32,000 nt of DNA from positions 510,001 through 542,000 of the forward strand of contig NZ_CP007536.1 of assembly GCF_000698785.1 (NCBI RefSeq). Direction: 5' to 3'. The translations under genes were made by a program, and so were the position numbers. Origin of the DNA: Nitrososphaera viennensis EN76. Lineage in GTDB: Archaea; Thermoproteota; Nitrososphaeria; Nitrososphaerales; Nitrososphaeraceae. Positions 2,561-27,015 of the stretch are shown here, one piece after another. The notes below the pieces were generated by a model that had not been told where the DNA came from, made no database searches, and worked only from the letters and a program-made list of their open reading frames with translations. Positions within the stretch are counted from its first letter, which is position 1. Each line of letters starts with the position of its first letter.

Positions 2561-2647
2561 CGCAATCAGGAATGCGTCCCCTAGGTCGAAAGATAAAGGG
2601 AAGCAGGCCAAGATCATAATAGATGATGAAATCTAGGACACGCTAGT

Positions 2648-3427
2648 TCAGCTGATGAATTTCTTTGTGAAGTCGATCATGTTTTGTGCAGTCGTCAGAT
2701 AACTTTGCGCATCTTCGGAGCTTATTTCAAAGGGCTTGCTAAGATATCTCGCTCCGTCAACTAGGCCATGTAGTTTGTTTAGCAGACCTTTGTAGTCTTC
2801 ATTCGCTCTATTCGCCAGCATTAGAGAATTGTATTTGAGTCTAGTCCAAACGTGAGTCTGCTTCTTAACGTATTCTTGTTCAGAAATGACAAATAACTGA
2901 GAGGTTGCTAGCAGTTCCACAGTGCTAAACAAGTTATCTACAAATGATCGCCATAATTTCTTCTCGTAACAATACTTTGCTGCTTCATAGAATTGAATTG
3001 CAGCATCCAGTCGTTCTTGAGCTTTTCCCTTATAATGCCTGAAATCGAATTGGATTATCCAATATCCTCTAAATTGAAGCAGGGTTACATGCCCTGCATC
3101 AGGGCTATCCTGATCAGTCAAGGTTACTCCTATAATCTCTTCAATTTCGTCTTCAAAGACTTCTTCTTTGAATTGTTTTTTGATGTCTGGTTTTAGTTTT
3201 AATTTTGCAATGGCCTTGACTTCATCATTTAGTCTTACTTCAGACGAATTCCTGTTAGGATCAAGAACTATCTGGGCTTTTGTTACTTGATAGTCTTTAG
3301 AGATAAGCCCATTTTCGACTCTCCGATTGAGCTCAGGATAGATCCATAGTTGCAAAATGTGATTGAAGAAGGTCTTTGCGCCTTCTTCATCAAGAGTTGG
3401 CTTTTGGTTTCCGACTTCAGAAGTCAT
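2648..3427 (-). CDS. hypothetical protein, unknown N-terminal domain plus HEPN-like C-terminal helical domain (tentative)
   Basis: 259 aa in an AT-rich segment. The C-terminal half (AAIQFYEAAKYCYEKKLWRSFVDNLFSTVELLATSQL ... THVW ... LHGLVDGARY ... SSEDAQ) resembles the non-catalytic HEPN helical bundle pattern. Its start overlaps the upstream ORF by 4 nt. Confidence 0.55.
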   Translation of the reverse strand: MTSEVGNQKPTLDEEGAKTFFNHILQLWIYPELNRRVENGLISKDYQVTKAQIVLDPNRNSSEVRLNDEVKAIAKLKLKPDIKKQFKEEVFEDEIEEIIGVTLTDQDSPDAGHVTLLQFRGYWIIQFDFRHYKGKAQERLDAAIQFYEAAKYCYEKKLWRSFVDNLFSTVELLATSQLFVISEQEYVKKQTHVWTRLKYNSLMLANRANEDYKGLLNKLHGLVDGARYLSKPFEISSEDAQSYLTTAQNMIDFTKKFIS

Positions 3428-3681
3428 TTCTTTTCTTTAGTGACTGTTTCTGTTATTCCTCTCTTGTATTCGAAGCCACTTCCTAGTGCTCCAATCTTAA
3501 CTCCCCATTCTCTCTTCTTTTCTACTACTTTTCGTTTGACTAGAAACTTCTTTCTTGCCTCATTTTCCATGTTGCTTCTGAACGTTCGGTATGCGTCTTG
3601 GTTCTGCAGATACCTAAGATCTGTAAGTGATGGATACTTGTTTATGGGAAAACGTCTCCCATTGTTTGTAATCCATTTCAT
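3424..3681 (-). CDS. small basic hypothetical protein
   Basis: 85-aa Lys/Arg-rich ORF. Its stop overlaps the start of the 259-aa ORF (ATGA, 3424-3427), indicating translational coupling. Confidence 0.5.
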   Translation of the reverse strand: MKWITNNGRRFPINKYPSLTDLRYLQNQDAYRTFRSNMENEARKKFLVKRKVVEKKREWGVKIGALGSGFEYKRGITETVTKEKK

Positions 3682-3740
3682 GCGGATGTTATAGAAGAAC
3701 TTGCATTAATCCATTTTCCGGTGAATCATGCTCGGATTCG

Positions 3741-5036
3741 TCATTCTAGCATTTCGCGAAGCTCTTCGTATTCTTCTTTTGTGATTTCTCCTTTCGCCAG
3801 ACGCATCTTTAGAACAAGAAGAGGGCTTTCCCTTGTCTGAACAGTTTCCGTCTTTTGGCCTGCCTGAATGTTTGACGTAGGTGCTGTCTGAGGAGAAGAC
3901 TTTTCTTGAAGCTTTACTAGCTGATTGTAGAGTTCGGCGGCGAATTCCCTGATAGCCTTTCCTCTAAATGACGTTACGCCAAACCTAGGCGATTGCGGAA
4001 TCCCATTTTCATCAACATAGGGAATTACTAGGTGATGCTCTTTGCCAGATTCATGAATAAAGCCCGTTCCTCCGAATACTCCATCTACAGGCGAACTGCC
4101 AATTCCTGAAACTTGTTGTCGTCTTGTTTTCTCCTCTATACTATAGCTTCCGACATCAATGCTTGCTAATGGAATTATGATGCTCCAGCGTTTAGAGAGA
4201 TCCTTTTCGTTTTTTGTGAATATAACGTGTTTTTCAGTAAGATAGAGCTTGCCTAATTCTTCCTTTGAGAGGAGCCCACCAGCTAGGTAGGCTTTATGAC
4301 CTCCATAGTATGAGGCGACTTCTCCCTTTAGAAGAATCTTGCCATATTGTTTGTGAAAGCAAGATACGCAGAGATTATCAGACTTGACAAAGAATGACTG
4401 TTCATTCTTCAGGCAAACAGAACAGGGCTTAGAGGGCATTTCGGGAGCTAATTCTTGAATTTCAGAAGTTGTAGTCTGCGTGCTTTCGATCTCCTTAGGC
4501 TTTTCGATAGATTTCGTCGAAAGGTTTCCTATCATCAGTCCTATAGTAGTGCTAACTTCATCAAGCTCTTTCCCTACATCAAGAATAAGAGATTCCTGTT
4601 TGTCTCCATTAAGAAAGTCGATCTGAAGATATCTACTTTCTGAAGTCTTACGGAGTCCTATTGTAATGATCATCTTCTTTAGGGAAGCTTCATTCTTAGA
4701 GACTATCTTGGAGCCTCGGATATCTTTAGATTTGAATGAAATGTAGAGATCATCTTTGCTCTTTTCTTTGTTCTTGAATCTGAAAACTACCTTGTTGATT
4801 TGGTCAAAAAGGAGAATCGACAGAAACCCATCCATCTGAACAGGGAGTTGTGAATGTCCTCCTACGTACGTCACTTCGTATTCTTTGATTCCATTCTTGA
4901 TAGTCTCGAAGCATGAATGACAGAGCTTGCCTTCGAATTCCCAGATCTCTTCAGAATCATGGCTTCTCAGACCTAGCGGTTTATGACATCTTGAACATTC
5001 CTTGTCCTTCTCACGAATGTTCTTAATGAAGCTCAA
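3741..5036 (-). CDS. duplicated zinc-ribbon plus PH/GRAM-like protein with C-terminal SHOCT motif
   Basis: 431 aa with a TTG start. There are two CxxC...CxxC ribbons (CSRCH...CHSC and CSVCL...CVSC). Each is followed by a Y.GGH beta-rich module (second copy: LYLTEKHVIFTKNEKD...). The C-terminal LAKGEITKEEYEELREMLE matches the SHOCT short C-terminal domain. Confidence 0.7.
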   Translation of the reverse strand: MSFIKNIREKDKECSRCHKPLGLRSHDSEEIWEFEGKLCHSCFETIKNGIKEYEVTYVGGHSQLPVQMDGFLSILLFDQINKVVFRFKNKEKSKDDLYISFKSKDIRGSKIVSKNEASLKKMIITIGLRKTSESRYLQIDFLNGDKQESLILDVGKELDEVSTTIGLMIGNLSTKSIEKPKEIESTQTTTSEIQELAPEMPSKPCSVCLKNEQSFFVKSDNLCVSCFHKQYGKILLKGEVASYYGGHKAYLAGGLLSKEELGKLYLTEKHVIFTKNEKDLSKRWSIIIPLASIDVGSYSIEEKTRRQQVSGIGSSPVDGVFGGTGFIHESGKEHHLVIPYVDENGIPQSPRFGVTSFRGKAIREFAAELYNQLVKLQEKSSPQTAPTSNIQAGQKTETVQTRESPLLVLKMRLAKGEITKEEYEELREMLE

Positions 5037-5063
5037 TCGGATGCCATATTATATGGCTGGTAT

Positions 5064-5189
5064 TTACCTTTTTTCTAGTTTATCGTCCCGGAACTTTGGG
5101 TCGTTGGCAGGCTGCAGTTTTGTAGTTCTTGAACGTTTCCATCTATAGATAAACGGGTAGGCCGCCAATGTGATTATTGCCGCAATCAT
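5064..5189 (-). CDS. candidate 41-aa small membrane protein (below ORF-track cutoff)
   Basis: Hand translation gives MIAAIITLAAYPFIYRWKRSRTTKLQPANDPKFRDDKLEKR: one hydrophobic helix plus a basic tail. No other support. Confidence 0.25.
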   Translation of the reverse strand: MIAAIITLAAYPFIYRWKRSRTTKLQPANDPKFRDDKLEKR

Positions 5190-5705: not shown

Positions 5706-7220
5706 TCATTCGCCTTTTATCTGGGCGCGCGTCTTGAAGACCGGCTTTATCCCGAGCGGCGCATAGTTGCCAGTCGAGCAGGTAAAGCACAGCTCTTCTT
5801 CCGGCATGCCAATTGCGCTTGCAAGGTTTGCAGTGTCGTTGTACGCGACATAGTCTGCGCCAATCACCCTTGCGACCTTGCCCGCCACCTTTTCGTTTGC
5901 CTGCTCTTCTGCGCCGTGCTGGTACGCAATAAGTTCCTCCTGTGACGGAAAGTCGATTCCGGCGTAGCACGGGTAGCGTATGGGCGGGTACGTGACTACG
6001 AGGCTTATCCGCCTTGCGCCTGCCGCGCGCAGCGTGCTTATTATCGACGCAGAGCTGGTGCCGCGGACAATGCTGTCGTCCACGACCACCACGTGCTTGC
6101 CCTCAATGACTTCCCGTATCGGGATTATGCCCTTGTTTATCTCGACCCTGTCGTTCTGGTACGGCTCGATGAAACTGCGCATCGAGCCCTTCTTGCTGTA
6201 CCTGTCCTTCAGCAGGCCCTCCTCAAACGGCAGGCCGGATTCCAGCGCATAGCCAAGCGCCGCGGGCCTTGCCGAGTCAGGGACCGGCACAACCACGTCC
6301 GCGTCCTGTATCGGGAATTTCTTGGCAAGGAACTGGCCTATCTTTTTCCTTGCCGCGTAGACGTTTATCCCCTCCATGATGCTTGACGGGTGCGCAAAGT
6401 ATGTGTATTCAAACGCGCAGTGGGCGTGCGGCGTTTCCGTCGCAAACTGCTGGGACTCGACCCCTGCCTTGCCCATCTTGACCAGTTCCCCCGGCTCGAC
6501 GTCGCGGACAAGCTGCGCCCCGACTGCGGCAAGCGCGCACGACTCCGACGCCACCATGTAGGTGCCAGTTTCCTTGTGAAAGCCAAGGACGAGCGGCCTG
6601 AATCCCCGCGTGTCGCGTGCCGCATACACTGAACCTTCGTCGGTGAGAAACGTAAAGCAGAACGAGCCGACCATCTCGCTTTTCAAAATAGACATCGCAG
6701 ACGCCATGTCGTCCTTTTCGGCGATGTGCATCACCAGGCGCTGGGCGGCAACCAGCGTGTCGCTCATGGTCTGCGGGGTGAACGTGCAGCCGCCCACCAT
6801 GCCTGAAAGCTGCTCCACGTTTGCTATGGTGCCGTTGTGGGCTATGCACAGGTCCTTGACCTTGAGGGGCTGGGCGTTTTCCAGGTTGCTCTTGCCAAAA
6901 GTGGAATAGCGCACGTGGCCGATGGCCGCGCTTGACTTGTATTTGCGCACAATAGCCTGAAAATCAGGCGCGGCCTGCGATACAAGGCCGAGCCTCTTGA
7001 ACGGGGGCTTGTTCGGGACGGCAATGCCCCACGCCTCCTGGCCGCGGTGCTGCAGCGCGCGCAGCATGTCTATGGCAAACGGTATGACATTGTGTCCGGC
7101 AAGCGAAAAGATGCCTACTACGCCGCAGTTTTCATGTACCAATGTTGTTCTTTGTCCCCCAAGCACAAGCAGGCCGAGCAAAAGAAGCCATGCCCATGAC
7201 CGGCAGTAGATAAACGCCAT
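5706..7220 (-). CDS. purF: amidophosphoribosyltransferase (glutamine PRPP amidotransferase)
   Basis: Has the Ntn nucleophile context ENCGVVGIF and the PRPP-binding loop VVVVDDSIVRGTS. The maximal ORF has 31 codons before the Cys. An in-frame TTG at 7142 would give MVHENC and is the more likely start. Confidence 0.95.
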   Translation of the reverse strand: MAFIYCRSWAWLLLLGLLVLGGQRTTLVHENCGVVGIFSLAGHNVIPFAIDMLRALQHRGQEAWGIAVPNKPPFKRLGLVSQAAPDFQAIVRKYKSSAAIGHVRYSTFGKSNLENAQPLKVKDLCIAHNGTIANVEQLSGMVGGCTFTPQTMSDTLVAAQRLVMHIAEKDDMASAMSILKSEMVGSFCFTFLTDEGSVYAARDTRGFRPLVLGFHKETGTYMVASESCALAAVGAQLVRDVEPGELVKMGKAGVESQQFATETPHAHCAFEYTYFAHPSSIMEGINVYAARKKIGQFLAKKFPIQDADVVVPVPDSARPAALGYALESGLPFEEGLLKDRYSKKGSMRSFIEPYQNDRVEINKGIIPIREVIEGKHVVVVDDSIVRGTSSASIISTLRAAGARRISLVVTYPPIRYPCYAGIDFPSQEELIAYQHGAEEQANEKVAGKVARVIGADYVAYNDTANLASAIGMPEEELCFTCSTGNYAPLGIKPVFKTRAQIKGE

Positions 7221-18273: not shown

Positions 18274-19518
18274 TTGGAACAGCAGCGAAAGGTGCGCGCA
18301 GAGGTAAAGCTGCCTCTTATACTCATACACACCCCGTTTGGCCTGGACTTCTTTGACAGGGTAGCCAGGGCTCCCGGCGCAAAGGCATGGGCCAGCATAA
18401 ACACGTACTTGATGCCCGTCATAACCGTCCTTGCGATTTTCCTCATAGTAGGCTCGCTTGCGGTGCTCTTTTCAAACGCCGACGCAAGAACCAGCATCCG
18501 CGGGGTAGGACCGACGGCAAACCTGCTCATACCCGGCCTCAACCCGTACCTGCCCATAGTGGAGGGGTGGGTGGCGCTTGTGGTGACCATCATAATCCAC
18601 GAGGCAGGCCACGGCATCATCGCCAGGGTCTACAACATCCGCGTGGACTCGACCGGGCTCGTGCTGTTCCTCGGGATACCGATAGGCGCATTTGTCAATA
18701 TTGAAAGAGATGAGCTTGCCAAGGCGACCCTCAAGCAAAAGAGCGCGGTGCTGACGGCAGGCCCCCTCAACAACATGATACTTGCAGGCGTCTCGCTCCT
18801 TGCGCTTTTCCTGGTGATGTCGACGCTCACCCCGCTGCCGCCGGCTCCCGGCGAGCCCCAGTTCGGAGTGGCTGTCATCAGCGTCAACCCCGGCTCGCTT
18901 GCCCAGTCCATCGGGCTTCCGCAGGGCGCCGTCATACAGGAGGTGGCAGGCCAGGAGGTCAAGAAGAATGAAGATCTAGGTCCCCTCCTTCGCGCCAACC
19001 TTGGCCAGACCATCGACATTACATGGGTCGAGGGGTCCGGCGGCGACGGCAACACCGCTTCTTTTGCGACAGTGACAAAGTCAGTGACACTTCCCGACGC
19101 CGTAGAGCCCGGCAAGGGCACGCTTGGCATTACAGTGGCGACTATAGATACCACTGGCGCAGTCCTTGAAAGGTACAAGGGCGCATTCAGCTCCAACCCA
19201 CTTGCCATACTCCTCCCGCCAACTATTCAGGAAGGAATCGTGCCATACTCTCAGCTGATGACTCCAAAGTACGAGTCGTCCATCGGCTCTGTGTGGTCGC
19301 CTCTGGCAAACATGCTGTTCTGGCTGTGGTTTGTCAACTTTAACGTCGGCATATTCAACGCGCTGCCGATAGGCCCGCTCGACGGAGGCCAGCTGTACAA
19401 CTCGCTCATTGAAAAGAAGATCAAGTCGCAGATAATGGCCAAGAACGCCACCACGATGCTCACGATACTGATGGCGGTAATCGTGGCGGCGGCGATACTG
19501 CTCCCGTACGTGATATAG
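18274..19518 (+). CDS. site-2 protease family (M50) membrane metalloprotease with PDZ domain
   Basis: HEAGHGIIAR (HExxH) in a TM helix, a PDZ-like insert (ISVNPGSLAQSIGLPQGAVIQEVAGQEV) and a C-terminal NALPIGPLDGGQL motif. Confidence 0.9.
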   Translation: MEQQRKVRAEVKLPLILIHTPFGLDFFDRVARAPGAKAWASINTYLMPVITVLAIFLIVGSLAVLFSNADARTSIRGVGPTANLLIPGLNPYLPIVEGWVALVVTIIIHEAGHGIIARVYNIRVDSTGLVLFLGIPIGAFVNIERDELAKATLKQKSAVLTAGPLNNMILAGVSLLALFLVMSTLTPLPPAPGEPQFGVAVISVNPGSLAQSIGLPQGAVIQEVAGQEVKKNEDLGPLLRANLGQTIDITWVEGSGGDGNTASFATVTKSVTLPDAVEPGKGTLGITVATIDTTGAVLERYKGAFSSNPLAILLPPTIQEGIVPYSQLMTPKYESSIGSVWSPLANMLFWLWFVNFNVGIFNALPIGPLDGGQLYNSLIEKKIKSQIMAKNATTMLTILMAVIVAAAILLPYVI

Positions 19519-19527
19519 AGACGTACG

Positions 19528-19816
19528 GAGAAGCAGCTGCAGGGATTAACCCGGATATTGAGAGAACAATGTGGAATCCCTAACGAGGCAGGCAGCGATT
19601 CATGCAAAGGATGAGCTGGTTAGCCCGGTTGTAAAAGGTCTAGGCATAAGAATCCACAAGGTAACAATCCTGAATGAAAAGGATTGTATCAAGGTCAAGC
19701 AGAAAAGCTGGCTTGACAAAAAGGATTGGGTAGAAATTCACGACATTCTAAGAGTACAAGGGTTTAGTTTGCTTGCAAATGGAAAGGATAGCTGTTGGAT
19801 AAGACATATTCAATAG
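19528..19816 (+). pseudogene. truncated, frameshifted 3' fragment of a transposase gene related to 22351-23823
   Basis: 19574-19816 aligns codon-for-codon with 23581-23823 (81-aa ORF versus the last 80 aa of the 490-aa transposase). Weaker homology continues upstream to about 19528 (AAGIN...) in a different frame and is closed by a stop. Everything 5' of that is absent. Confidence 0.7.
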
Positions 19817-19863
19817 CAGAGGAGACTACAAAAATCCAAAATTAACTGCTGATACGCTCCTCT

Positions 19864-20451
19864 TCATCGAACATATTTAGGAGAAACCTTGATCATCAGT
19901 TCACCGCAACAGGGGCATTTGAAAGCCATCCTGTCTCCCCAATAGCTAAAGACAGTCATGCAATTCGGACACTTGCACATCTTATCACGATATACAAGTT
20001 GTGGATCTCTTATTATTTGTGGCAAAAAGTCTTTCTTTGCAGTAGGAGCCCGAACGTCGCTAATGTAATCAGCGATCTCAAAGTCTCGTCGAGACGAAAG
20101 TGGGTGTGGAAAATAGTGATTTAGATAGGGGACGGCAAAATCAACTCCTTCCTCGTTAAAGACATAGACAGGTTTTTGTGGAATTGAGGCAGCGGCAACG
20201 CCAATCTCGAACGCAACCCAATTCCTGGTATGCATTATTGAAGCCACATTTTTTGTCAGGATTACAAAAAGCGCCTTTGATTTGGTTATCTCTTTCCTTA
20301 TCCATTTCCAGTTGGGTTCTTTATTCCTGTGCCATCCCTCATATTCCATAGCCACTGCCTTAACACCAGTATCTTTGAAAGCGTTGTGAAAGAACTTCAT
20401 GATCTCTGTATCTGAAGCACTATGAGAGATGAAAATGGTTTTTGCTGACAT
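19864..20451 (-). CDS. TIR-like domain protein (DUF1863/ThsB-like) with C-terminal zinc ribbon
   Basis: 195 aa. The N-terminal TIFISHSASD strand, KSKALFVILTKNV, then NWVAFEIGVAAA...KPVYVF reproduce the prokaryotic TIR-like layout including the conserved Glu. The C-terminus has CKCPNC...CPCC. Call made by eye. Confidence 0.65.
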   Translation of the reverse strand: MSAKTIFISHSASDTEIMKFFHNAFKDTGVKAVAMEYEGWHRNKEPNWKWIRKEITKSKALFVILTKNVASIMHTRNWVAFEIGVAAASIPQKPVYVFNEEGVDFAVPYLNHYFPHPLSSRRDFEIADYISDVRAPTAKKDFLPQIIRDPQLVYRDKMCKCPNCMTVFSYWGDRMAFKCPCCGELMIKVSPKYVR

Positions 20452-20470
20452 TTACTCTATGTCTAGAAAG

Positions 20471-20554
20471 AGTCCTGTCGAGATCAAGGGCGATTCCATC
20501 GTTTTTGCTGGCTGTCGAGAGTCGGGCGATTTTGTCGAAGGCAGGGCGATAAGT
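20471..20554. repeat. left copy of an about 84-bp imperfect inverted repeat (partner at 24705-24788)
   Basis: Hand alignment with the reverse complement of 24705-24788 gives 78 of 84 positions identical. The outer boundary at 20471 is abrupt. It contains three copies of TGTCGARR-N3-4-GGGCGATW starting at 20476, 20513 and 20533. Confidence 0.85.
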
Positions 20555-21027
20555 CAGATGTCAGAAGTTGAGGATAATGCTTTCTTGCGGCCAAGTATCA
20601 GGAAAAACCCGACCCAGCCGACCAACGTCAGAGCAAGGAACAAAATCCCGCCTGTTTCTGACGCATAAAAGTCATAATAGAAAGCCTCCAGGAAGCTCTT
20701 AGGAAATTCGGCTACTGCTTGGCCTAGACAGGCTATCAGAAACCCCTTGTAGAAGGGTTTGGTTTTGAAACGCGTGTAGACTACTAGCGGCGATAACGCA
20801 CCAATCGTGCCAAAGAAACCGCCGAAGAAGCGCATGAGTCGGACATCGCTCTTAGAATTGAGGCAAATGGCGTCAATTCCTGTATTAGTGGGCGGTCCGA
20901 CTTTTGCTGTACCGCCGTATGTCTCACAAATTACCTTGTGCCCTATCTCATGGAAATATCCAATTGGCAAGACCGTTATGGCAAATCCCAAGACTGCAAA
21001 CATTGCGACTCGAATATCAAAACGCAA
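20554..21027 (-). CDS. membrane-embedded HExxH protein (DUF3267-like putative zincin)
   Basis: 157 aa with 3-4 hydrophobic helices. HEIGH follows directly after the first helix (FAITVLPIGYFHEIGHKV). TTG start. The stop codon overlaps the inner edge of the left inverted repeat. Confidence 0.6.
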   Translation of the reverse strand: MRFDIRVAMFAVLGFAITVLPIGYFHEIGHKVICETYGGTAKVGPPTNTGIDAICLNSKSDVRLMRFFGGFFGTIGALSPLVVYTRFKTKPFYKGFLIACLGQAVAEFPKSFLEAFYYDFYASETGGILFLALTLVGWVGFFLILGRKKALSSTSDI

Positions 21028-21070
21028 GTTATCTAGAAGACTTTTAGCTATCCTTTAACCATATTGAAGA

Positions 21071-21184
21071 ATGCAGCCGGGCGGCTATTATTATGAGTTC
21101 ATGCTGATAGCAACCTTTCTTGGTATAGGATTTGGCCTAGGGTATTCGTTCATTCATTTGCTGAGAAAGTATCGAAAAAGCTAA
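21071..21184 (+). CDS. candidate 37-aa single-helix membrane peptide (below ORF-track cutoff)
   Basis: Hand translation gives MQPGGYYYEFMLIATFLGIGFGLGYSFIHLLRKYRKS. An AT-rich box lies about 26 nt upstream. Weak support. Confidence 0.2.
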   Translation: MQPGGYYYEFMLIATFLGIGFGLGYSFIHLLRKYRKS

Positions 21185-21340
21185 AAAGTAGCTTGTACTA
21201 ATTTTATCTTGGACACCCAAAGGAAAAAAGGACTCGCCGATGACCCTACCAATGGGATATGGCGGTAGGTAGTGCCATCGGCCTTGTCTTTTGGGTGTCT
21301 GCTCTTTTGGAACAGACAGATTGTACGGCACTATCGGTGT

Positions 21341-21517
21341 TTAGACTAGTCGACGGCCAAGGAGGCCGACTCCTACGCCTATGGCGATAAACAATGCTCC
21401 AAGCCAGTAGACATTGCCAAAATTCCCTATGAATGTGGCTTTGTCTGCCAGTGTCGCTCCGAGCATCGTCATTGCTCCCGTTCCCGACAGTGTTGCTATA
21501 GCTTTTTTTATAGCCAT
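21341..21517 (-). CDS. candidate 58-aa small membrane protein (below ORF-track cutoff)
   Basis: Hand translation gives MAIKKAIATLSGTGAMTMLGATLADKATFIGNFGNVYWLGALFIAIGVGVGLLGRRLV. A TTTAAATA box at 21542-21549 (minus strand) sits 25-32 nt upstream of the ATG. This reading is preferred over the Arg/Ser-rich 96-aa ORF in another frame. Confidence 0.4.
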   Translation of the reverse strand: MAIKKAIATLSGTGAMTMLGATLADKATFIGNFGNVYWLGALFIAIGVGVGLLGRRLV

Positions 21518-21576
21518 GCGCGCGTCCTACCGTCAAGGCAGTATTTAAAGTTTAAATATCTTTACTTTGTCTTCAC

Positions 21577-22248
21577 TTAGTTCCGCTCGAACAGGTCATC
21601 CCAATGGTCAACAACATCCTTGATTATCTTATCCCTATTATCGATCAGCGTTTGTTTTATTTTTGGGTCTTTCTCTTCCCTGATGCGCATATCCAACGCT
21701 TTTGGAAAATCGACTTCTATGACGATTCTGATTTTGCCATCTGACATCACAGCCTTTTTCTTTATCATTTTTGCTACGAGCTCGGCAATTTCTTCCAACA
21801 GCTTAGGGTCTATGTCCATCTTGGTAGGCAGCCACAAAGTAACAGAAGACCGTAAAGCTTGGCCGACCGCGTTTGCAAACGCTCCAAGATCCTTTTTCAC
21901 GTAACCTCTAACAACTAATGCTGGTACTTGTGCAGCTAGCTTCTCTTCTAACGTGTATTTCTTTCCAAGCGACATCAATAGTACATTGATTGCTTCGAGA
22001 TGACGCTTGCGCGCATCATCGACAGGGCGAATATTTGGAACAAGCTCAACGAACTGTTTTCCTGCTTCTGTTGTCTCGTAAAATCCTTGATCCGTCTTGG
22101 CTATCAGTTCTTTACCTTGCAAATCGTTGAGGTGCACCATCAACGTTGGCTCTGTTTTACCAGTTATTTTCACAAGTTCGCTCCAGGACTTTGGGATTAC
22201 GCATGACTCTAGGATAGTCGCCTTAGTTTCCCCGATTTTTTGCGACAT
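21577..22248 (-). CDS. winged-helix transcriptional regulator with uncharacterised C-terminal domain
   Basis: N-terminal TILESCVIPKSWSELVKITGKTEPTLMVHLNDLQGKELIAKTDQGFYETTEAG is a wHTH. The start is placed at the second ATG (22248) because a TATAAGTA box (22272-22279, minus strand) lies about 24-31 nt upstream. The maximal ORF begins at 22269. Confidence 0.65.
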   Translation of the reverse strand: MSQKIGETKATILESCVIPKSWSELVKITGKTEPTLMVHLNDLQGKELIAKTDQGFYETTEAGKQFVELVPNIRPVDDARKRHLEAINVLLMSLGKKYTLEEKLAAQVPALVVRGYVKKDLGAFANAVGQALRSSVTLWLPTKMDIDPKLLEEIAELVAKMIKKKAVMSDGKIRIVIEVDFPKALDMRIREEKDPKIKQTLIDNRDKIIKDVVDHWDDLFERN

Positions 22249-22282
22249 CTGCCAAATACACTTCCTCATCCTACTTATACCG

Positions 22283-22347
22283 TACTAAGTATAAGAACTT
22301 TGCTTTGTCTTAGCAAAGTTTATTAAGATACTTAGTATATACTAAGT
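22283..22347. promoter_or_regulatory. operator-like palindromes in the divergent regulator/transposase promoter region
   Basis: A perfect 18-bp palindrome ACTTAGTATATACTAAGT (22330-22347) sits between a TTTATTAAG box (22319-22327) and the transposase ATG. An extra TACTAAGT half-site is at 22283-22290. A perfect 9-bp inverted repeat AACTTTGCT-N7-AGCAAAGTT is at 22296-22320. Confidence 0.5.
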
Positions 22348-22350
22348 TGC

Positions 22351-23823
22351 ATGGAACCCACTGCCCACCAACCCGATGCACGCGAAATGAAAGGTCTTGC
22401 TATGGCAAAGGATGTCAGCCAGAAAAAGTCCGATGTTGCCATACAGCTTCTAAATGAAATGACCTACAAGGTGAGGTCGCAGTCAGACATCAGCAAATGG
22501 TACATGGTCGTTCGGACAGAGGGCGCATGGACGTGCGACTGTCCAGATTCTACCTATCGCCATGTAACCTGCAAGCACATTCATGCGGTACTGTTCTCGA
22601 AGGCATTTAGAAAGAAGGTGTATGAGGATACGCTATTCCAGACACCGGTAAACCAGCACATCATCAACGAATCAAACGAGCTTGGCAAGATTGTTTGCCA
22701 ACGCTGCGCAAGCGGCAACTACGTAAAATGCTCGGTTCGCCACACGAAAAAAGCGGGCGACATTCAACGTTATCAGTGCAAAGATTGTGGATACAGATTC
22801 ATTGTCAACCCAGCATTTGAACATGCAAAAGTAACTGCTAGGATAATATCGGCGGCAATCGACCTCTATTTCAAGGGTGTTTCGCTCAGGAAAATAGAGG
22901 ATCATGTTTTGCAGTCTTTCAACGTCAAGGTGGACCATTCGAGCGTAGCAAATTGGATTCGCCGCTTTAACAAGGTAGTCCAGCCTTACGTGGATTCATT
23001 CGTGCCCGTGCAGGTTGGCGGCGTTTACCATGTTGATGAAATGCTAGTACATGTAAGAAAGGAGCATAACGACGCTACTATGAACCTGAATAACAAAGAA
23101 AACCATACCTTTAGGAAATTCGACAACCACTATAGCTGGCTATGGAACTTGATGGATTCAAGTACTAGATTTTGGATATGCTCCAAGATTACCCAAAAGC
23201 GTACGGGCGATGTGGCTCGCTCTGTCTTTAAGGAAATGAAGCAACGCGCCCCGCTGCCACGGGCGATAGTGCATGATGGCCTGCGCTCGTACGATGAAGC
23301 ATACACCCGCGAGTTGTACACGAGGGAAAAGCCACAAATCCAGAATGTGAGAAGCGTCGGCTCTAACGAAAAGGGCTTGAACCCTAAAGTCGAGCGCCTT
23401 AACGGAACGGTAAGAGACCGCGAAAGCGTAATGCGCGGCATGGACACGGCGGAAAGCGCGCAGGAGCTCATGGACGCAATGCAGATTCATTACAATTTCA
23501 TTCGAGGCAATCAGGCCATAGGGGGTCAGACACCGGCTGAAGCAGCAGGCATTAACCTCAACCTGAAAGAAAACAAGACGGAATCTTTGATGAGGCAGGC
23601 GGCGATTCATGCAAAGGATGAGCTAGTTAGCCCGGTCGTCAAAGGACTTGGCATACGCATTCACAAGGTAACAATCCTGAATGAAAAGGACTGCTTAAAG
23701 GTCAAGCAGAAGGGATGGCTTGACAAAAAGGACTGGGTAGAGATTCATGATATACTACGTGTACAAGGTTTCAACTGGTTAGCGAACGGCAAAGATAGCT
23801 GTTGGCTCAAATTGATTGTTTGA
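22351..23823 (+). CDS. DDE transposase (IS6/IS240-like, tentative) with N-terminal SWIM zinc finger and zinc ribbon plus an about 80-aa C-terminal extension
   Basis: SWIM motif WTCDCPDSTYRHVTCKHIH and ribbon CQRC...CKDCGYRF. DDE-type blocks are YHVDEMLV, WLWNLMDSSTRFW...KR, AIVHDGLRSYDEAY and KVERLNGTVRDRESVMRGM. The C-terminal module is duplicated at 19574-19816. Confidence 0.8.
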   Translation: MEPTAHQPDAREMKGLAMAKDVSQKKSDVAIQLLNEMTYKVRSQSDISKWYMVVRTEGAWTCDCPDSTYRHVTCKHIHAVLFSKAFRKKVYEDTLFQTPVNQHIINESNELGKIVCQRCASGNYVKCSVRHTKKAGDIQRYQCKDCGYRFIVNPAFEHAKVTARIISAAIDLYFKGVSLRKIEDHVLQSFNVKVDHSSVANWIRRFNKVVQPYVDSFVPVQVGGVYHVDEMLVHVRKEHNDATMNLNNKENHTFRKFDNHYSWLWNLMDSSTRFWICSKITQKRTGDVARSVFKEMKQRAPLPRAIVHDGLRSYDEAYTRELYTREKPQIQNVRSVGSNEKGLNPKVERLNGTVRDRESVMRGMDTAESAQELMDAMQIHYNFIRGNQAIGGQTPAEAAGINLNLKENKTESLMRQAAIHAKDELVSPVVKGLGIRIHKVTILNEKDCLKVKQKGWLDKKDWVEIHDILRVQGFNWLANGKDSCWLKLIV

Positions 23824-24671
23824 TGAAAAAGGTTATTGGGATGCCAGATTTTACCAATTCGATGAATCTTGGTAAAATCTTCGATGAGATTTCCAAGAAG
23901 ATGGTTGTCGATATAAATGAAACAAGAAAAGCGATTGACAAGCACCCGGGTTTGAGAGGAGAGTCTTTCGAGGAAGTAGTCCGTGAATTCCTTGAAAAAT
24001 ATCTACCAAAAGCCTTTGCAATCTCAAAGGGATTCATAGTTGATTCCGATGGCAAACAGTCGAAGCAATTAGATGTAATAATTTCAGATGCGATGAATAG
24101 TCCTATCTTTTATCAAAAGGGCGAAAACCGGGTATTGCCTGTTGAGTGTGTTTTTGCAGTAATAGAAGTCAAAGCACGATTAGATTCTGTCGAGCTTGAC
24201 AAGGCAGTTGATAATATGCTAAGCGTACGTAATTTAACCAAGAAAGCCTTTCGTACGGTGCCATCGTATCAGCCCCTCTTTCGTTCCATAGGTTTGTATG
24301 GAAAGGAAGATTGGATAGGCTACCCAATCAATTACTTCGTTTTTGCTTTTGATTCCATCGATTTGAAGCATCTAACAAAATTATTAGACAGGAAACATAA
24401 GGCGCATAAATTGCCCGAATGGTCACGAATAGATGGGATATATGTGTTAGGAAAAGGTATGGTGACCAATTATATCGAATATGAGTATGATGACAACCGT
24501 ATACCTCCATTGCACATAATCAGGACTTTGCCAGAGCCAAAATCAAAGGTCACATCAATAAAATCGCGGCGATCATTACTCCTGTTTTATCAGGATCTCA
24601 TGGACTGTCTTTCAATGGCAGAAGTGAAAAACTTCATTTTGCCTGACTATACTTACCGACTACGCTTCTGA
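23823..24671 (+). CDS. DUF6602-like PD-(D/E)xK nuclease-fold protein
   Basis: GLRGESFEEVVREFLEKYLP...GFIVDSDGKQSKQLDVIISD...PVECVFAVIEVKARL gives the D...E-x-K restriction-endonuclease-like core. Its ATG overlaps the transposase TGA (TGATG). The maximal ORF starts at a TTG at 23802. Confidence 0.7.
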   Translation: MKKVIGMPDFTNSMNLGKIFDEISKKMVVDINETRKAIDKHPGLRGESFEEVVREFLEKYLPKAFAISKGFIVDSDGKQSKQLDVIISDAMNSPIFYQKGENRVLPVECVFAVIEVKARLDSVELDKAVDNMLSVRNLTKKAFRTVPSYQPLFRSIGLYGKEDWIGYPINYFVFAFDSIDLKHLTKLLDRKHKAHKLPEWSRIDGIYVLGKGMVTNYIEYEYDDNRIPPLHIIRTLPEPKSKVTSIKSRRSLLLFYQDLMDCLSMAEVKNFILPDYTYRLRF

Positions 24672-24704
24672 AGGAATCAATAGGTAAATTTTCGGTAAAC
24701 CATA

Positions 24705-24788
24705 ACTCATCGCCCTACCTTCGACAAAATCGCCCGACTCTCGACAGCGAGGAAAATCGAAGGAATCGCCCTTGATCTCGACAGGACT
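24705..24788. repeat. right copy of the about 84-bp inverted repeat (partner at 20471-20554)
   Basis: See the left copy. The outer boundary at 24788 is abrupt. Flanking sequences are unrelated. Confidence 0.85.
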
Positions 24789-24909
24789 GGAGAGCAGTAT
24801 GCTTTTATATCTGCAAGTGGGAGTTACGCTTGACTTATAGCTGGCTTGTGCCGAGGCATTTTCTACAGCACAATACTTGGCATAGCCGGACGAAAAATGA
24901 GGCAAGAAC

Positions 24910-27015
24910 TTGGAAAAAAACGAAATAGAAGGATTTGAAGAAGAAAGGCAGACTCAGACCCAGCGCAGGCCCCGGCCGGAGCAGATGCAGAGGCGGCCCG
25001 CGCAAGATGTAGCTGCCGCCCACGTGACCAAGGTCACGACGGAAAGCGAGGACGCTGTCGCAAAGATAATACTGCAGTCGATACCGGCTGACTCGCAGGT
25101 AACAAACGTCAGGTTCGAGGGCCCCAACATTGCGCTGTACACGAAAAACCCCAAGTTTGCGCTCACCGAGTTGACCTACTACCTTTCTTCGCTTTCAAAG
25201 ACCCTGAAAAAGAGGTTCATAATACGCACGGACCCGTCGGTGCGCCTGCCAGAAGACGCCACGCGGCAGGCAGTGGTGAAGCTCCTGCCAAAGGACGTGC
25301 AGGTGTCGGCGGTGTTTTGCGACGACGCTACGGGCGAAGTGGTCCTTGAGGTAAGCAAGCCGGAGGCAATCGACCCGGCCATGATAGTAGAGATAGCCAA
25401 GTCCACGGGCTGGATTGCCCACACGAGGCGCTCGCCCCACATACCGTCTACCAGCATCAACACCATACATTCGACGCTCAAAAGTTCTGCAAAAGAACGC
25501 TCGGACTTTCTCCAAAAGCTCGGAAGGAGGCTGTTCCGGGGCTCACTAGTGGTCGGCAACGTGCCGGAGAACGGCGGCAACGGCAGGAGCGAGCAGGCGT
25601 CCGACGTCGTCTTGCCTCCAAGGCCCCAGTGGTCGCAGAACCGCGAAGAAGTGATGCTGTTCTGCCTCGGCGGGGTCAAGCAGGTGGGGCGCTCGTGCTT
25701 TATCGTAGTCACGCCGGAAAGCAAGGTCATGCTTGACTGCGGCATAAACCCCGGCGAGATGTCCGGCCTTGACGCATACCCGCGAATCGACTGGCTCAAC
25801 TTTAACCTTGACGAGCTTGACGCAGTAGTCATCAGCCACGCCCACATCGACCACCAGGGGTTCCTGCCGGCGCTCTTCAAGTACGGCTACCGCGGGCCGG
25901 TGTACTGCACCGAGCCGACGCTGCCGCTCATGACGCTCCTGCAGATGGACTCGGTCAAGATCGCAAACTCTAACGGCACGTACCTGCCGTACGAGGCAAG
26001 GGACGTCCACGAAGTCATAAAGCACACGATAACGCTCCCGTACGGCAAGCCGACAGACATTTCTCCAGACATCACGGTCACTTTGAACAACGCCGGCCAC
26101 ATCATGGGCAGCGCGACGGTGCACCTGAACATCTCTGGCGCGCACAACATACTCTACTCCGGCGACTACAAGTTTGCACGGACGCAGTTGCTTGACAGCG
26201 CGGTGGCGACGTACCCGAGGGTCGAGACATTGATCACGGAAAGCACGTACGGCAACTCGTCTGACATCATGCCCGACCAGGCATTCGTGTACAGGACGTT
26301 TTCAGAGTCGATAAACAAGGTGCTGTCGGAGGGAGGCAAGGTCCTCATACCGGTGCCGGCAGTCGGCAGGGCGCAGGAGATAATGCTGGTGATGGCAAAG
26401 GAGATGAGCGAAGGCAGGCTCGTCGAGTCGCCAATATACATCGAGGGCATGATATCCGAGGCAAGCGCGATACACATGTCGTACGCGCACTACCTTGGAG
26501 CAGACGTGCGCAGGTCTGTCTCGCAGGGCATAAACCCGTTCACGTCCGAATACTTCACGGTCATCAGCGGGGGCAAGCGCGAAGAGGCCATAAACGACCA
26601 GAACCCGGCGATAATCATGGCGACGTCCGGCATGCTCGAAGGCGGCCCGTCCGTCGAATATTTCAAGGAGCTTGCGCCAAGCCCCAAGAACAAGATAATC
26701 TTTGTCTCGTACCAGATAAACGGCACGCTTGGCCGGCGCGTCCTTGACGGCAACGTCTCTGAGGTCAGCATGATGGACAAGTCCGGGAAGGTCAAGGTCG
26801 TTCCAGTCAGGTGCCAGACGCAGAAAATCGACGGCTTTTCCGGCCACAGCGACTTTAACCAGATAATGAACTTTGTAGCCAAGATCAAGCCAAAGCGCGT
26901 TCTTGTGAACCACGGCGAGAGGACCAAGTCAGAAAACGTCGCAAGCGCGATATATTCGCGGCTAAAGATACGTTCCGGCGTCCCGGACAACCGCGAGATT
27001 GTCCGCCTGCGGTAA
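24910..27015 (+). CDS. archaeal CPSF1-type ribonuclease (two KH domains, metallo-beta-lactamase, beta-CASP); aCPSF1/FttA-like
   Basis: N-terminal KH-like region (NVRFEGPNIALYTKNP), the HAHIDHQG HxHxDH motif, and downstream beta-CASP blocks (ESTYG, GRAQE, SGHSD). TTG start; the exact start is uncertain. Confidence 0.93.
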   Translation: MEKNEIEGFEEERQTQTQRRPRPEQMQRRPAQDVAAAHVTKVTTESEDAVAKIILQSIPADSQVTNVRFEGPNIALYTKNPKFALTELTYYLSSLSKTLKKRFIIRTDPSVRLPEDATRQAVVKLLPKDVQVSAVFCDDATGEVVLEVSKPEAIDPAMIVEIAKSTGWIAHTRRSPHIPSTSINTIHSTLKSSAKERSDFLQKLGRRLFRGSLVVGNVPENGGNGRSEQASDVVLPPRPQWSQNREEVMLFCLGGVKQVGRSCFIVVTPESKVMLDCGINPGEMSGLDAYPRIDWLNFNLDELDAVVISHAHIDHQGFLPALFKYGYRGPVYCTEPTLPLMTLLQMDSVKIANSNGTYLPYEARDVHEVIKHTITLPYGKPTDISPDITVTLNNAGHIMGSATVHLNISGAHNILYSGDYKFARTQLLDSAVATYPRVETLITESTYGNSSDIMPDQAFVYRTFSESINKVLSEGGKVLIPVPAVGRAQEIMLVMAKEMSEGRLVESPIYIEGMISEASAIHMSYAHYLGADVRRSVSQGINPFTSEYFTVISGGKREEAINDQNPAIIMATSGMLEGGPSVEYFKELAPSPKNKIIFVSYQINGTLGRRVLDGNVSEVSMMDKSGKVKVVPVRCQTQKIDGFSGHSDFNQIMNFVAKIKPKRVLVNHGERTKSENVASAIYSRLKIRSGVPDNREIVRLR

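Follow-up and report, generated by a model that had tools for sequence, protein, structure and literature searches.

Layout of the locus

The window is the whole stretch of DNA that was analysed, 32,000 nucleotides of the Nitrososphaera viennensis EN76 genome (contig NZ_CP007536.1, positions 510,001 to 542,000). The following features were found in it, with positions counted from its first letter.

19519..24788: low-GC (0.39-0.48), strain-specific island of 5.3 kb between the M50 protease and aCPSF1 genes
19527..19536: left copy, GGAGAAGCAG, of a possible, weak direct repeat, with GGAGAGCAG at 24789-24797
19537..19798, plus strand: copy of the 3' end of the transposase gene, about 82% identical to 23545-23805, directly after the M50 stop codon
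19864..20451, minus strand: TIR–zinc-ribbon gene, 195 aa (ORF; Pfam TIR_2, 3.7e-6; PADLOC ThsB, 1e-6; AF2; Foldseek)
19885..19980, minus strand: C-terminal Cys4 zinc ribbon, aa 158-189, CKCPNC...CPCC (homologue conservation, AF2)
20104..20451, minus strand: TIR-like domain, about aa 1-116 (AF2 secondary structure; Pfam matches aa 6-104)
20206..20208, minus strand: codon of Glu82 in W78-V-A-F-E82 (homologue alignment, motif regex, alignment with PDB 8fz9)
20452..20553, minus strand: spacer of 102 nt between the TIR and membrane genes, lacking a TATA-like box and any T-run of 4 or more
20471..20554: left arm of an 84-nt inverted repeat, with ATCGCCC-N5-TCGACA sub-repeats
20554..21027, minus strand: membrane protein of 157 aa with an HExGH motif, NVIE_006520 (ORF; orphan family of 6 clusters)
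21341..21517, minus strand: small membrane or exported protein of 58 aa, presumably NVIE_006540, with its own TTTAAATA box at -32
21577..22269, minus strand: protein of 230 aa with a winged-helix domain at its N-terminus, its gene divergent from that of the transposase
22351..23823, plus strand: DDE transposase of 490 aa (Pfam DDE_Tnp_IS240, 9.5e-10; NCBIfam IS6, 1.3e-26)
23802..24671, plus strand: NucC-like PD-(D/E)xK nuclease, DUF6602 (Pfam, 2.9e-31; PADLOC NucC effector, 2.6e-33)
24705..24788: right arm of the inverted repeat, which reaches the right edge of the island with its outer end

The island thus begins with the transposase-end remnant, followed by the TIR gene and by a repeat-bounded segment with the HExGH gene, the IS6-like transposase and the NucC-like nuclease. 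In 33 related contigs the M50 and aCPSF1 genes were directly adjacent, mostly with gaps of 130-420 nt, and none of the island genes was present in 80 fetched M50 loci, 33 of which included both flanking genes. A search for an empty site by way of identical TIR proteins returned 24 contigs, all of N. viennensis; short assemblies break inside the repeat.

The transposase consists of a SWIM and zinc-ribbon N-terminus, an IS6/IS240-like core and an extra C-terminal module of 80 residues. It scored 39.2 with Pfam DDE_Tnp_IS240 (cut-off 27) and 93.6 with NCBIfam IS6, which is below the cut-off of 125. The copy of its gene end at the left of the island encodes an ORF of 81 residues (19571-19816). The NucC-like nuclease matched NucC of the PDB at about 7e-17 over the N-terminal 150 residues only.

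The two arms of the inverted repeat are 84 nt long and 93% complementary. The pattern ATCGCCC-N5-TCGACA was matched twice in each arm, four times in total against 0.07 expected, and by eye a third copy, one base longer, was seen in each. From the end of the right arm it is no more than about 7 nt to the point where the native promoter of aCPSF1 continues. Neither an exact scan of a genome collection that probably masks this window nor a degenerate scan of a metagenome collection turned up another copy of the repeat, and we rejected the idea of a multicopy IS end. The sequence GGAGA(A)GCAG, a weak candidate for a duplication and the only one, lies on both sides of the entire island (19537-24788), and no direct repeat was found around the repeat-bounded unit at 20471 and 24788. 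With its 84-nt repeat and no flanking duplication, this unit differs from IS6-family insertion sequences, which have short terminal inverted repeats and a target-site duplication. We conclude that the TIR gene is cargo of a mosaic mobile island between two core genes.

The TIR–zinc-ribbon protein

The 195-residue protein is identical to the database entry AIC14855.1 / WP_075053991.1 of N. viennensis, presumably with the locus tag NVIE_006510, and the RefSeq annotation of EN76 already calls it "TIR domain-containing protein". The first-pass annotation had described a prokaryotic TIR-like layout fused to a cysteine ribbon, and the motifs TIFISHS, KSKALFVILT, NWVAFEIG and CKCPNC...CPCC were all found in the protein. 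In the Pfam comparison it scored 27.9 bits with TIR_2, just under the cut-off of 28.0, and 24.7 bits with CAP12-PCTIR_TIR, exactly the cut-off. DUF4062 gave 19.2 bits against a cut-off of 24.7, TIR_2 being the better fit, and ThsB_TIR was matched only at E 0.06. The best matches in the defence libraries were PADLOC ThsB models, at E 1e-6 to 1e-2. Among the family members, 20 of 22 matched TIR_2 (best 3.1e-10), and DUF4062 and CAP12-PCTIR_TIR were each matched by 18 of 22. No other sequence matches of the family are nearly as frequent or as strong as those to these three; Nuc_deoxyrib_tr was matched by one member.

The AF2 model of the protein (pLDDT 79.6, pTM 0.80) predicts alternating beta-strands and helices in the TIR-like domain, with strands at residues 4-9, 30-33, 61-65, 95-100 and 112-116. 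The predicted fold is a flavodoxin-like alpha/beta fold of five parallel strands that comes closest to solved TIR domains. When the model was compared by Foldseek, the top matches were RPPT-TIR, prokaryotic SEFIR, TIR-STING, SpbK, SPARTA, ThsB and SARM1; 2'-deoxyribosyltransferase and MilB were also listed. The profile matches at or near the cut-offs, the family-wide TIR_2 matches and the model agree on a TIR-like layout.

In TIR NADases the catalytic glutamate closes a W-x-x-x-E motif where helix C begins, and this motif is typical of these enzymes together with a FISHS first strand. The glutamate of WVAFEIG, Glu82, was invariant in the 22 aligned homologues, in keeping with the catalytic role that had been suggested for it, and it is kept in distant bacterial members. 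W78-V-A-F-E82 aligns with WVPHE of the 'TIR' of PDB 8fz9, and we take the position of Glu82 to be that of the catalytic glutamate in the plant and bacterial motif. The W-x-x-x-E regex matched 88 of 99 family representatives; among the 11 that it missed, three are full-length and retain the glutamate in a variant motif, the others being fragments or uninspected. The fused ribbon was also borne out, as its CxxC...CPxC motif is conserved among the homologues and present in 77 of the 99 representatives, those that lack it being mostly fragments of less than 170 aa. It was modelled as a small beta-ribbon (pLDDT 78-89).

Taken together, the 195-residue protein is a real TIR-type protein with a C-terminal zinc ribbon. 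By analogy to the TIR NADases it is probably NAD-cleaving. Some TIR domains serve as scaffolds only, and TIR-like folds bearing the same glutamate also occur in nucleoside 2-deoxyribosyltransferases.

Family and gene neighbourhoods

Profile searches returned 665 clusters of the TIR–ribbon family at E 1e-3, 370 at 1e-10 and 27 at 1e-30. The members are mostly 180-240 aa long, match the whole profile and come from archaea and bacteria; in some bacterial members a Gly-rich hydrophobic segment precedes the ribbon. No match was found among viral contigs, phages and plasmids, and an origin of the family from these was discarded.

The neighbourhoods of 22 other TIR–ribbon loci, 23 with that of the window, were compared by locus retrieval, tblastn and all-vs-all clustering, with flanks of 6-8 kb where the contig allowed. 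No cluster of neighbouring genes was common to more than three loci, and a Pfam and PADLOC scan of 120 neighbouring proteins showed no family in more than three. A conserved partner gene of any kind was rejected for these loci, as nothing was recurrent in either comparison. Genes of Gabija, MmeI-type restriction-modification or MADS are near some homologues, and an integrase is near one (L001). An enrichment in defence islands is not demonstrated for the family because many loci are surrounded by housekeeping rather than defence genes.

The HExGH membrane protein

The 157-residue protein upstream of the TIR gene had been read as a polytopic membrane zincin. Its HEIGH sequence occupies residues 26-30 within a predicted helix (residues 5-36), and H26, E27, G29 and H30 are invariant across four aligned sequences. 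This part of the claim stood, and the remaining comparisons gave it little backing. Pfam had no match even at E up to 10 and PADLOC had none; the sole NCBIfam match was daptide_HExxH at E 0.033, far under the cut-off. The hhalign comparison with the neighbouring M50 protease gave a probability of 5.6%, the likeness being limited to the motif. The AF2 model (pLDDT 58) was too poor and therefore unusable for a fold search.

The protein resembles the DUF3267 and other intramembrane HExxH metalloproteases in the HExGH motif embedded at the end of its first predicted transmembrane helix, in its UniRef label, DUF3267, and in the weak match to the daptide HExxH intramembrane protease. It differs from them in having no Pfam match, in sharing no more than the motif with M50 and in belonging to a family of 6 clusters. 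The assignment as an M50 or DUF3267 peptidase was rejected on these grounds, and it is solely by the invariant HExGH that the protein may be called a putative zincin.

The spacer and the expression of the two genes

The left repeat arm had been placed in the spacer upstream of the TIR gene, and it does cover 83 of the 102 nt, which leaves 19 nt between its end and the TIR ATG. Over a stretch of 70 nt upstream of this start there is no A/T run of 6 or more, and the best TATA-like octamer matches at 6 of 8 positions, at -18. The TIR gene therefore lacks a TATA box as described, but the added remark that most genes of the window differ in this respect overstates the contrast, as roughly one in three of the remaining ORF starts has an octamer of at least 7/8 at -25 to -45. 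Runs of four and five T follow the TIR stop codon, near 19830-19842, whereas none of four or more occurs in the spacer. A bacterial promoter and terminator scan of the window was disregarded because the organism is an archaeon.

In published RNA-seq data of N. viennensis, the TIR gene averaged 4.2/3.8 and the membrane gene 3.5/2.8 in log2 RPKM, against 9.5-10 for the core genes on either side (PMC7785015, Dataset S1). Both genes of the pair are thus near-silent and close to background in culture, at about 7-19 RPKM and about 15 RPKM for the TIR gene; the gene of the 58-residue protein is very highly expressed (PMC7785015). It is plausible that, as had been proposed, transcription runs on from the membrane gene into the TIR gene, as the spacer holds neither a TATA box nor a T-run of 4 or more and both genes are similarly weakly expressed.

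Interpretation

The best explanation overall, which we consider probable but by a modest measure, is that the 195-residue protein is a self-contained TIR and Cys4-ribbon protein. With the same reserve we regard its family as sparsely but widely distributed and free of an obligate partner gene. On the analogy of SpbK and Swarozyc, the protein is most likely a stand-alone NADase. The HExGH gene is unrelated cargo upstream of it; the two show no conserved linkage.

We infer NADase activity, a role in defence, a role of the ribbon and read-through transcription, which would combine as follows. The TIR domain would be held inactive until a trigger drives its self-association, by analogy with SpbK and Swarozyc. 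The C-terminal ribbon, with its variable linker, may sense this trigger or mediate oligomerisation, after which cleavage of NAD+ by Glu82 would result in abortive infection or an arrest of growth. The repeat arm in the spacer appears to have replaced the former promoter of the TIR gene, whatever its nature. Transcription of the gene is now weak and probably either runs on from the membrane gene or begins at a weak cryptic start. Against this explanation count the scores of the protein at or just under the Pfam cut-offs, the near-background expression in culture, the housekeeping genes around many homologue loci and the negative search of viral contigs, phages and plasmids, as well as the scaffold role of some TIR domains and the deoxyribosyltransferases with a TIR-like fold and the same glutamate. 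The wider proposal, that the TIR–Cys4-ribbon proteins of archaea and bacteria are a family of self-sufficient, single-protein immune NADases with the ribbon as a trigger sensor or oligomerisation switch, is tentative, and we would put it at rather less than even.

An unlikely alternative casts the TIR–ribbon protein not as an antiviral sensor but as the toxin of an addiction or selfish module by which the IS-associated island is stabilised, or as a passenger that is decaying and in effect silent. At two independent loci, the window and L006, where IS6-like transposases flank the homologue, the TIR gene has a complete IS6-like transposase gene on one side and a partial copy of the 3' end of that gene on the other, and in the window the replaced promoter region and the transcription at about 15 RPKM would fit this alternative. 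However, the ORF is intact with every family-invariant residue retained, most family loci are without transposases, and no small antitoxin-like gene was found conserved beside the family members.

Slightly less likely still is a fold of the TIR or nucleoside deoxyribosyltransferase type that acts on something other than NAD+, for instance in nucleoside or nucleotide processing or in nucleic-acid binding by the ribbon. Zinc ribbons frequently bind nucleic acids, and 2'-deoxyribosyltransferase and MilB among the Foldseek matches, as well as the single Nuc_deoxyrib_tr match, point in this direction. The far commoner and stronger matches to the three TIR-type profiles argue against it, and so does the combination of W-x-x-x-E with the FISHS strand.

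The first-pass annotation had proposed that the TIR enzyme, as a signal producer or NADase, is paired with the membrane HExxH metalloprotease as sensor or effector on one transcript that leaves the repeat-bounded element. Such a Thoeris-like architecture would be notable, and the genes are indeed both on the minus strand and 102 nt apart, with no TATA box or T-tract between them, similarly low expression and an HExGH motif that is invariant in the four membrane-protein homologues. Comparative genomics speaks against it. A lack of conserved linkage had been named in advance as a reason to drop the pairing, and neighbourhood retrieval for both families, tblastn and all-vs-all clustering showed none: the membrane-protein homologue was absent from all 22 other TIR–ribbon loci, and the TIR gene from all three loci of membrane-protein homologues. 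The family sizes are unequal, with 6 clusters for the membrane protein and at least 370 for the TIR protein. The repeat arm forms a boundary between the two genes within the strain-specific mosaic island and is absent beside the membrane-gene homologues, and nothing in the Pfam and hhalign comparisons indicates that the membrane protein is a protease. Because the TIR and HExGH genes are never neighbours at the other loci compared, they are not a new two-gene immune system; they adjoin here only because both lie in the 5.3-kb mobile island. We regard the pairing as very improbable.

Equally remote is a Thoeris- or CBASS-like pair in which the TIR protein makes a signal for the NucC-like nuclease, which is encoded on the island at a distance of 3.3 kb: the nuclease is clear, no nucleotide cyclase was seen in the window and Thoeris TIR domains do make nucleotide second messengers, but a DUF6602/NucC-like gene occurred at none of the 22 other TIR loci, for which the pair was dropped, the genes are on opposite strands with four genes and a repeat boundary between them, and the ligand of NucC is cyclic tri-AMP, not a TIR product, with only the N-terminal nuclease core conserved here.

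Beyond the pairing, the protein belongs to a coherent, unstudied family of small TIR and zinc-ribbon proteins, with hundreds of clusters in archaea and bacteria. The genes for the TIR protein and the NucC-like nuclease are two candidates for a role in defence, both on a well-delimited mobile island of a soil ammonia oxidiser that serves as a model. If the immune-NADase reading is true, the N. viennensis copy would be among the first candidate TIR defence genes of ammonia-oxidising archaea. The locus also cautions that adjacency within mosaic islands is not evidence of a system.

Comparison with known systems

The TIR effectors of CAP12/Pycsar and CBASS are related to the protein by the CAP12-PCTIR_TIR match, which is at the cut-off for the protein itself and found in 18 of 22 family members. 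They differ in having their own nucleotide-sensing domain and an adjacent cyclase, neither of which is present at the TIR–ribbon locus. Thoeris ThsB is likewise a small protein of the TIR-only type; the PADLOC ThsB models were the best defence match, and EcThsB structures were among the Foldseek matches. ThsB adjoins its ThsA effector, whereas the TIR–ribbon gene has no ThsA neighbour: no ThsA-type partner (SIR2-SLOG or Macro-TM) was found among the scanned ORFs of the window, and no family was recurrent near the homologues.

The closest likeness is to single-protein systems. SpbK of the Bacillus subtilis element ICEBs1 is a single TIR-like protein with one accessory domain that is activated by a phage portal protein and depletes NAD+, its NADase being activated by clustering (PMC12847820). 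Like the TIR–ribbon protein it is encoded on a mobile element; it was the best PDB sequence match of the family profile (9phb, E 5e-4) and among the top Foldseek matches. SpbK differs in that it is bacterial, whereas the host of the window protein is archaeal, and in that it binds the phage portal through an accessory domain at the N-terminus, that of the window protein being a C-terminal Cys4 ribbon of 35 aa; the sequences align over the first 72 residues of the TIR domain only. Swarozyc (DUF4062) is also a single TIR-like protein that is activated by a phage portal and depletes NAD+, but its auxiliary domain is a helical stalk and a zinc ribbon is not mentioned in the preprint (bioRxiv 10.64898/2026.05.01.722283). 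It shares with the TIR–ribbon protein the N-terminal TIR-like domain with the catalytic glutamate, followed by a C-terminal auxiliary domain. Swarozyc is a single-gene abortive-infection system with a patchy, horizontal spread, and 18 of 22 TIR–ribbon members match its DUF4062 profile. The TIR–ribbon family would fit the emerging pattern of single-protein TIR NADases that SpbK and Swarozyc represent.

A mosaic island between two core genes

Between 19.5 and 24.8 kb the G+C content is 0.39-0.48, down from 0.58. The features of this stretch and its flanks are:

18274-19518, M50 site-2-type protease, core gene
19537-19798, partial transposase copy, matching the final ~260 nt of that gene (23545-23805) at about 82% identity
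19864-20451, minus strand, TIR-like ORF, 195 aa (TIR gene)
20554-21027, minus strand, membrane ORF, 157 aa (HExGH gene)
20471-20554 and 24705-24788, arms of an 84-nt inverted repeat, 93% complementary
23802-24671, plus strand, NucC-like PD-(D/E)xK nuclease (DUF6602; PADLOC NucC effector, 2.6e-33)
24910-27015, beta-CASP ribonuclease aCPSF1/FttA, core gene

For comparison, 80 related Nitrososphaeraceae metagenome loci were fetched with the M50 protein, 33 of which contained both M50 and aCPSF1. The aCPSF1 gene followed the M50 gene in all 33, usually after a gap of 130-420 nt, and island genes were found in none of the 80. On the left, homology ended at the M50 stop codon. On the right, the conserved aCPSF1 promoter (…AGTATGCTTTTATA…) restarted about 7 nt beyond the outer end of the repeat arm. 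Gene order in relatives, where the island genes are missing, and these junctions mark 19519-24788 as an insertion of 5.3 kb, specific to the strain or species.

Near-identical decamers, GGAGAAGCAG (19527-19536) and GGAGAGCAG (24789-24797), surround the whole island as an imperfect GGAGA(A)GCAG repeat, perhaps a target duplication or an att core; the second lies within native aCPSF1 upstream sequence. This repeat is weak evidence, and no target duplication was found around the repeat-bounded unit. A few related contigs (L053, L067-L069, L093, L121) carried 0.6-1.9 kb of extra DNA between M50 and aCPSF1, and the junction is a possible hot spot of repeated insertion. Beside the purine-biosynthesis genes (~2600-5100) lies another low-GC patch (0.40), possibly a further small accessory island. 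Encoded in it are a protein that weakly matches HEPN (2648-3427) and a 431-aa protein with SHOCT/GRAM domains (3741-5036).

The island itself is a mosaic of the transposase 3'-end copy, the TIR gene and a repeat-bounded 4.3-kb segment, in this order. The segment holds the HExGH gene, a 58-aa membrane protein, a winged-helix protein, the transposase (SWIM/Zn-ribbon/IS6-like DDE domains) and the NucC-like nuclease. The HExGH gene thus lies inside the repeats, whereas the TIR gene lies outside. As the first-pass annotation had claimed, the left arm sits in the spacer between the two genes; it fills most of the 102 nt, with 19 nt left before the TIR start codon. A pattern search found two ATCGCCC-N5-TCGACA sub-repeats per arm (4 in total, 0.07 expected), and a third, slightly longer copy per arm was seen by eye. 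Such spaced units resemble protein-binding sites, with the transposase or the island winged-helix protein as candidate binders. Genome and metagenome scans gave no further copies of the 84-nt repeat, within which short-read assemblies of N. viennensis break.

The TIR gene as apparent IS-associated cargo

A parallel layout was found in the related locus L006. There, a TIR homologue (45% identity) is flanked by a full IS6-like transposase gene on one side and a 290-nt copy of that gene's 3' end (76%) on the other, and a winged-helix gene is divergent from the transposase, as in the window. It therefore appears that the TIR gene has moved more than once as IS-associated cargo. The last ~240-290 nt of the transposase gene form a module encoding about 80 aa (…WLDKKDWVEIHDILRVQGF..NGKDSCW). 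The module and related sites occur in the window (19537-19798, 23545-23805), L001 (1938-2086, 5058-5135; related peptides near an integrase), L004 (268-372) and L006 (4263-4552, 7340-7629). In the window a truncated direct copy stands beyond the cargo genes, and L006 has an analogous truncated 3' copy. The module is possibly a structural end of the element rather than a product of random decay.

The NucC-like protein aligned to NucC in the PDB (6uxf/6p7o, ~7e-17) over its N-terminal 150 aa alone. With the IS6-like transposase gene next to it and no cyclase or CD-NTase in the window, it could serve type III CRISPR or CBASS as an ancillary nuclease carried on a transposon.

Expression of the island genes

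The 70 nt upstream of the TIR start contain no A/T run of at least 6 and no good TATA-like octamer. The reported lack of a box before the TIR gene thus stood, but not the statement that most genes of the window differ in this, since TATA-like octamers at -25 to -45 precede only about a third of the ORF starts. Some Nitrososphaeraceae TIR homologues (L006, L009) have A/T-rich boxes at about -25 to -35, a position taken by the G+C-rich repeat arm in the window copy. T-runs of at least 4 are absent from the coding strand of the spacer; T4 and T5 runs follow 22-34 nt after the TIR stop, and T6, T5 and T5 runs lie between the 58-aa gene and the HExGH gene.

Published average log2 RPKM, Cu-replete / Cu-limited (Reyes et al. 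2020, PMC7785015, Dataset S1)
NVIE_006490, M50 protease: 9.5 / 10.0
NVIE_006510, TIR (tag deduced from gene order and consecutive accessions): 4.2 / 3.8
NVIE_006520, HExGH membrane protein: 3.5 / 2.8
NVIE_006540, 58-aa protein (tag inferred): 11.6 / 11.7
NVIE_006560, transposase: 3.2 / 2.8
NVIE_006570, NucC-like nuclease: 4.9 / 4.4
NVIE_006580, aCPSF1: 9.5 / 9.3

From these values, the TIR and HExGH genes are almost silent in culture, at similar levels. This is compatible with, though no proof of, weak read-through from the HExGH gene into the TIR gene, as had been proposed. The 58-aa membrane or exported protein (21341-21517, minus strand) has a strong TATA box of its own, a perfect TTTAAATA at -32. 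As the inferred NVIE_006540, its gene is among the most expressed of the region, about 200-fold above its island neighbours.

The TIR–ribbon protein and its family

Both ORFs of the first-pass annotation were recovered in place, on the minus strand, with all their motifs (TIFISHS, KSKALFVILT, NWVAFEIG, CKCPNC...CPCC and HEIGH). By exact protein match, the 195-aa protein is AIC14855.1 / WP_075053991.1, named 'TIR domain-containing protein'. Another public gene model starts at Met18 (178 aa). Homologue alignments begin at residue 3-6 and keep the IFISHS strand, so the 195-aa model is correct.

The protein matched Pfam TIR_2 (E 3.7e-6, 27.9 bits, cut-off 28), CAP12-PCTIR_TIR with a score exactly at the cut-off, DUF4062 (E 1.4e-3) and the PADLOC ThsB models (E down to 1e-6). 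Among 22 family members scanned, TIR_2 was matched by 20, and DUF4062 and CAP12-PCTIR_TIR by 18 each. An AlphaFold2 model built from the family alignment (pLDDT 79.6, pTM 0.80) had five strands with helices between them, then a disordered linker (117-138) and, at the C-terminus, a small beta-ribbon. Foldseek matched it in the PDB to RPPT-TIR, a prokaryotic SEFIR domain, TIR-STING, SpbK, SPARTA TIR-APAZ, MyD88, EcThsB and SARM1, and also to the related 2'-deoxyribosyltransferase fold; the family profile matched SpbK (E 5e-4). Glu82, the Glu of WVAFEIG, lies in W78-x-x-x-E82, the motif in which the TIR NADases of plants and bacteria have their catalytic Glu. It is invariant in the family alignment, as are F7, H10, T75, F81 and G84, and full-length homologues keep the CxxC...CPxC ribbon. 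Predicted fold and motif conservation bear out the TIR-like reading.

Searched exhaustively with the family profile, 1.84 billion cluster representatives yielded 665 proteins at E≤1e-3, of which 370 reached ≤1e-10 and 27 reached ≤1e-30; the majority measure 180-240 aa and match the profile over its full length. The ribbon was present in 77 of 99 inspected representatives, the remainder being mostly fragments. In 18 of the 99, a Gly-rich hydrophobic segment separates TIR domain and ribbon. This Gly/Ala-rich, transmembrane-like segment occurs in many bacterial members (L020, L022-L028, P0056, P0059, P0073, P0082, P0086, P0094, P0115 and others), and the Nitrososphaera proteins are without it. 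Hosts include Nitrososphaeraceae, Thermoplasmata, Desulfurococcales, Dehalococcoidia, Acidobacteriota and Bacteroidales; the family was absent from the IMG/VR viral contigs, GenBank phages and PLSDB plasmids searched. The TIR gene is not new as such, its TIR-domain annotation being public already. Full-text literature searches found no description of a TIR with a C-terminal zinc ribbon; proteins of this architecture form a coherent, apparently unstudied family.

No conserved linkage of the TIR and HExGH genes

The first-pass annotation had paired the TIR enzyme with a membrane zincin. We compared 22 distinct TIR–ribbon loci, with 6-8 kb flanks where contigs allowed, and three loci with homologues of the membrane protein. 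By tblastn, none of the 22 contained a membrane-protein homologue and none of the three a TIR homologue. This absent linkage contradicts a two-gene system, and a novel architecture of this kind is not supported. All-versus-all ORF clustering within ±5 kb gave no neighbour cluster common to more than three loci; the sole three-locus cluster with real content was the IS6-like transposase and its C-terminal module. Among 120 neighbour proteins (Pfam, PADLOC), no family appeared more than three times. Defence genes were few (Gabija GajA in 2 loci, an MmeI-type enzyme, MADS), and the other neighbours were transposases, an integrase and plain housekeeping genes. A signalling pair of TIR and NucC was also considered, but the two did not co-occur in any of the 22 loci. 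In the Dehalococcoidia locus L019, as in the window, the TIR–ribbon homologue has an M50 peptidase gene (5860-6930) some 1 kb upstream; an M50 gene nearby in 2 of 23 loci is probably a coincidence.

The membrane protein, NVIE_006520 (AIC14856.1; UniRef 'DUF3267 domain-containing', exact protein match), belongs to a tiny family, for which a single-sequence search found four clusters and a profile search six. The HExGH motif is invariant among homologues. The zincin label is putative, since there was no Pfam or PADLOC match, hhalign to the adjacent M50 protease aligned the motif alone and the AF2 model was poor; NCBIfam gave only a weak sub-threshold match (E 0.033).

Comparison with single-protein TIR effectors

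For the TIR–ribbon protein, a non-NADase use of the TIR-like fold and a role as an addiction or decaying-cargo gene were considered. The reading best supported is that it acts alone, as a TIR effector like SpbK and Swarozyc. By analogy, Glu82 would serve catalysis, and the Cys4 ribbon with its variable linker would sense the trigger or control oligomerisation; an active NADase with a defence role is likewise suggested by analogy. SpbK (PMC12847820) and Swarozyc/DUF4062 (bioRxiv 10.64898/2026.05.01.722283) are switched on when phage portal assemblies bring their TIR domains together in clusters; inactive before that, they then deplete NAD+ and abort infection. In this reading the TIR–ribbon protein is likewise a single chain, with one small accessory domain beside the TIR(-like), putative NADase domain, and has spread horizontally. 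It is best classed with these known single-protein TIR effectors, as a variant.
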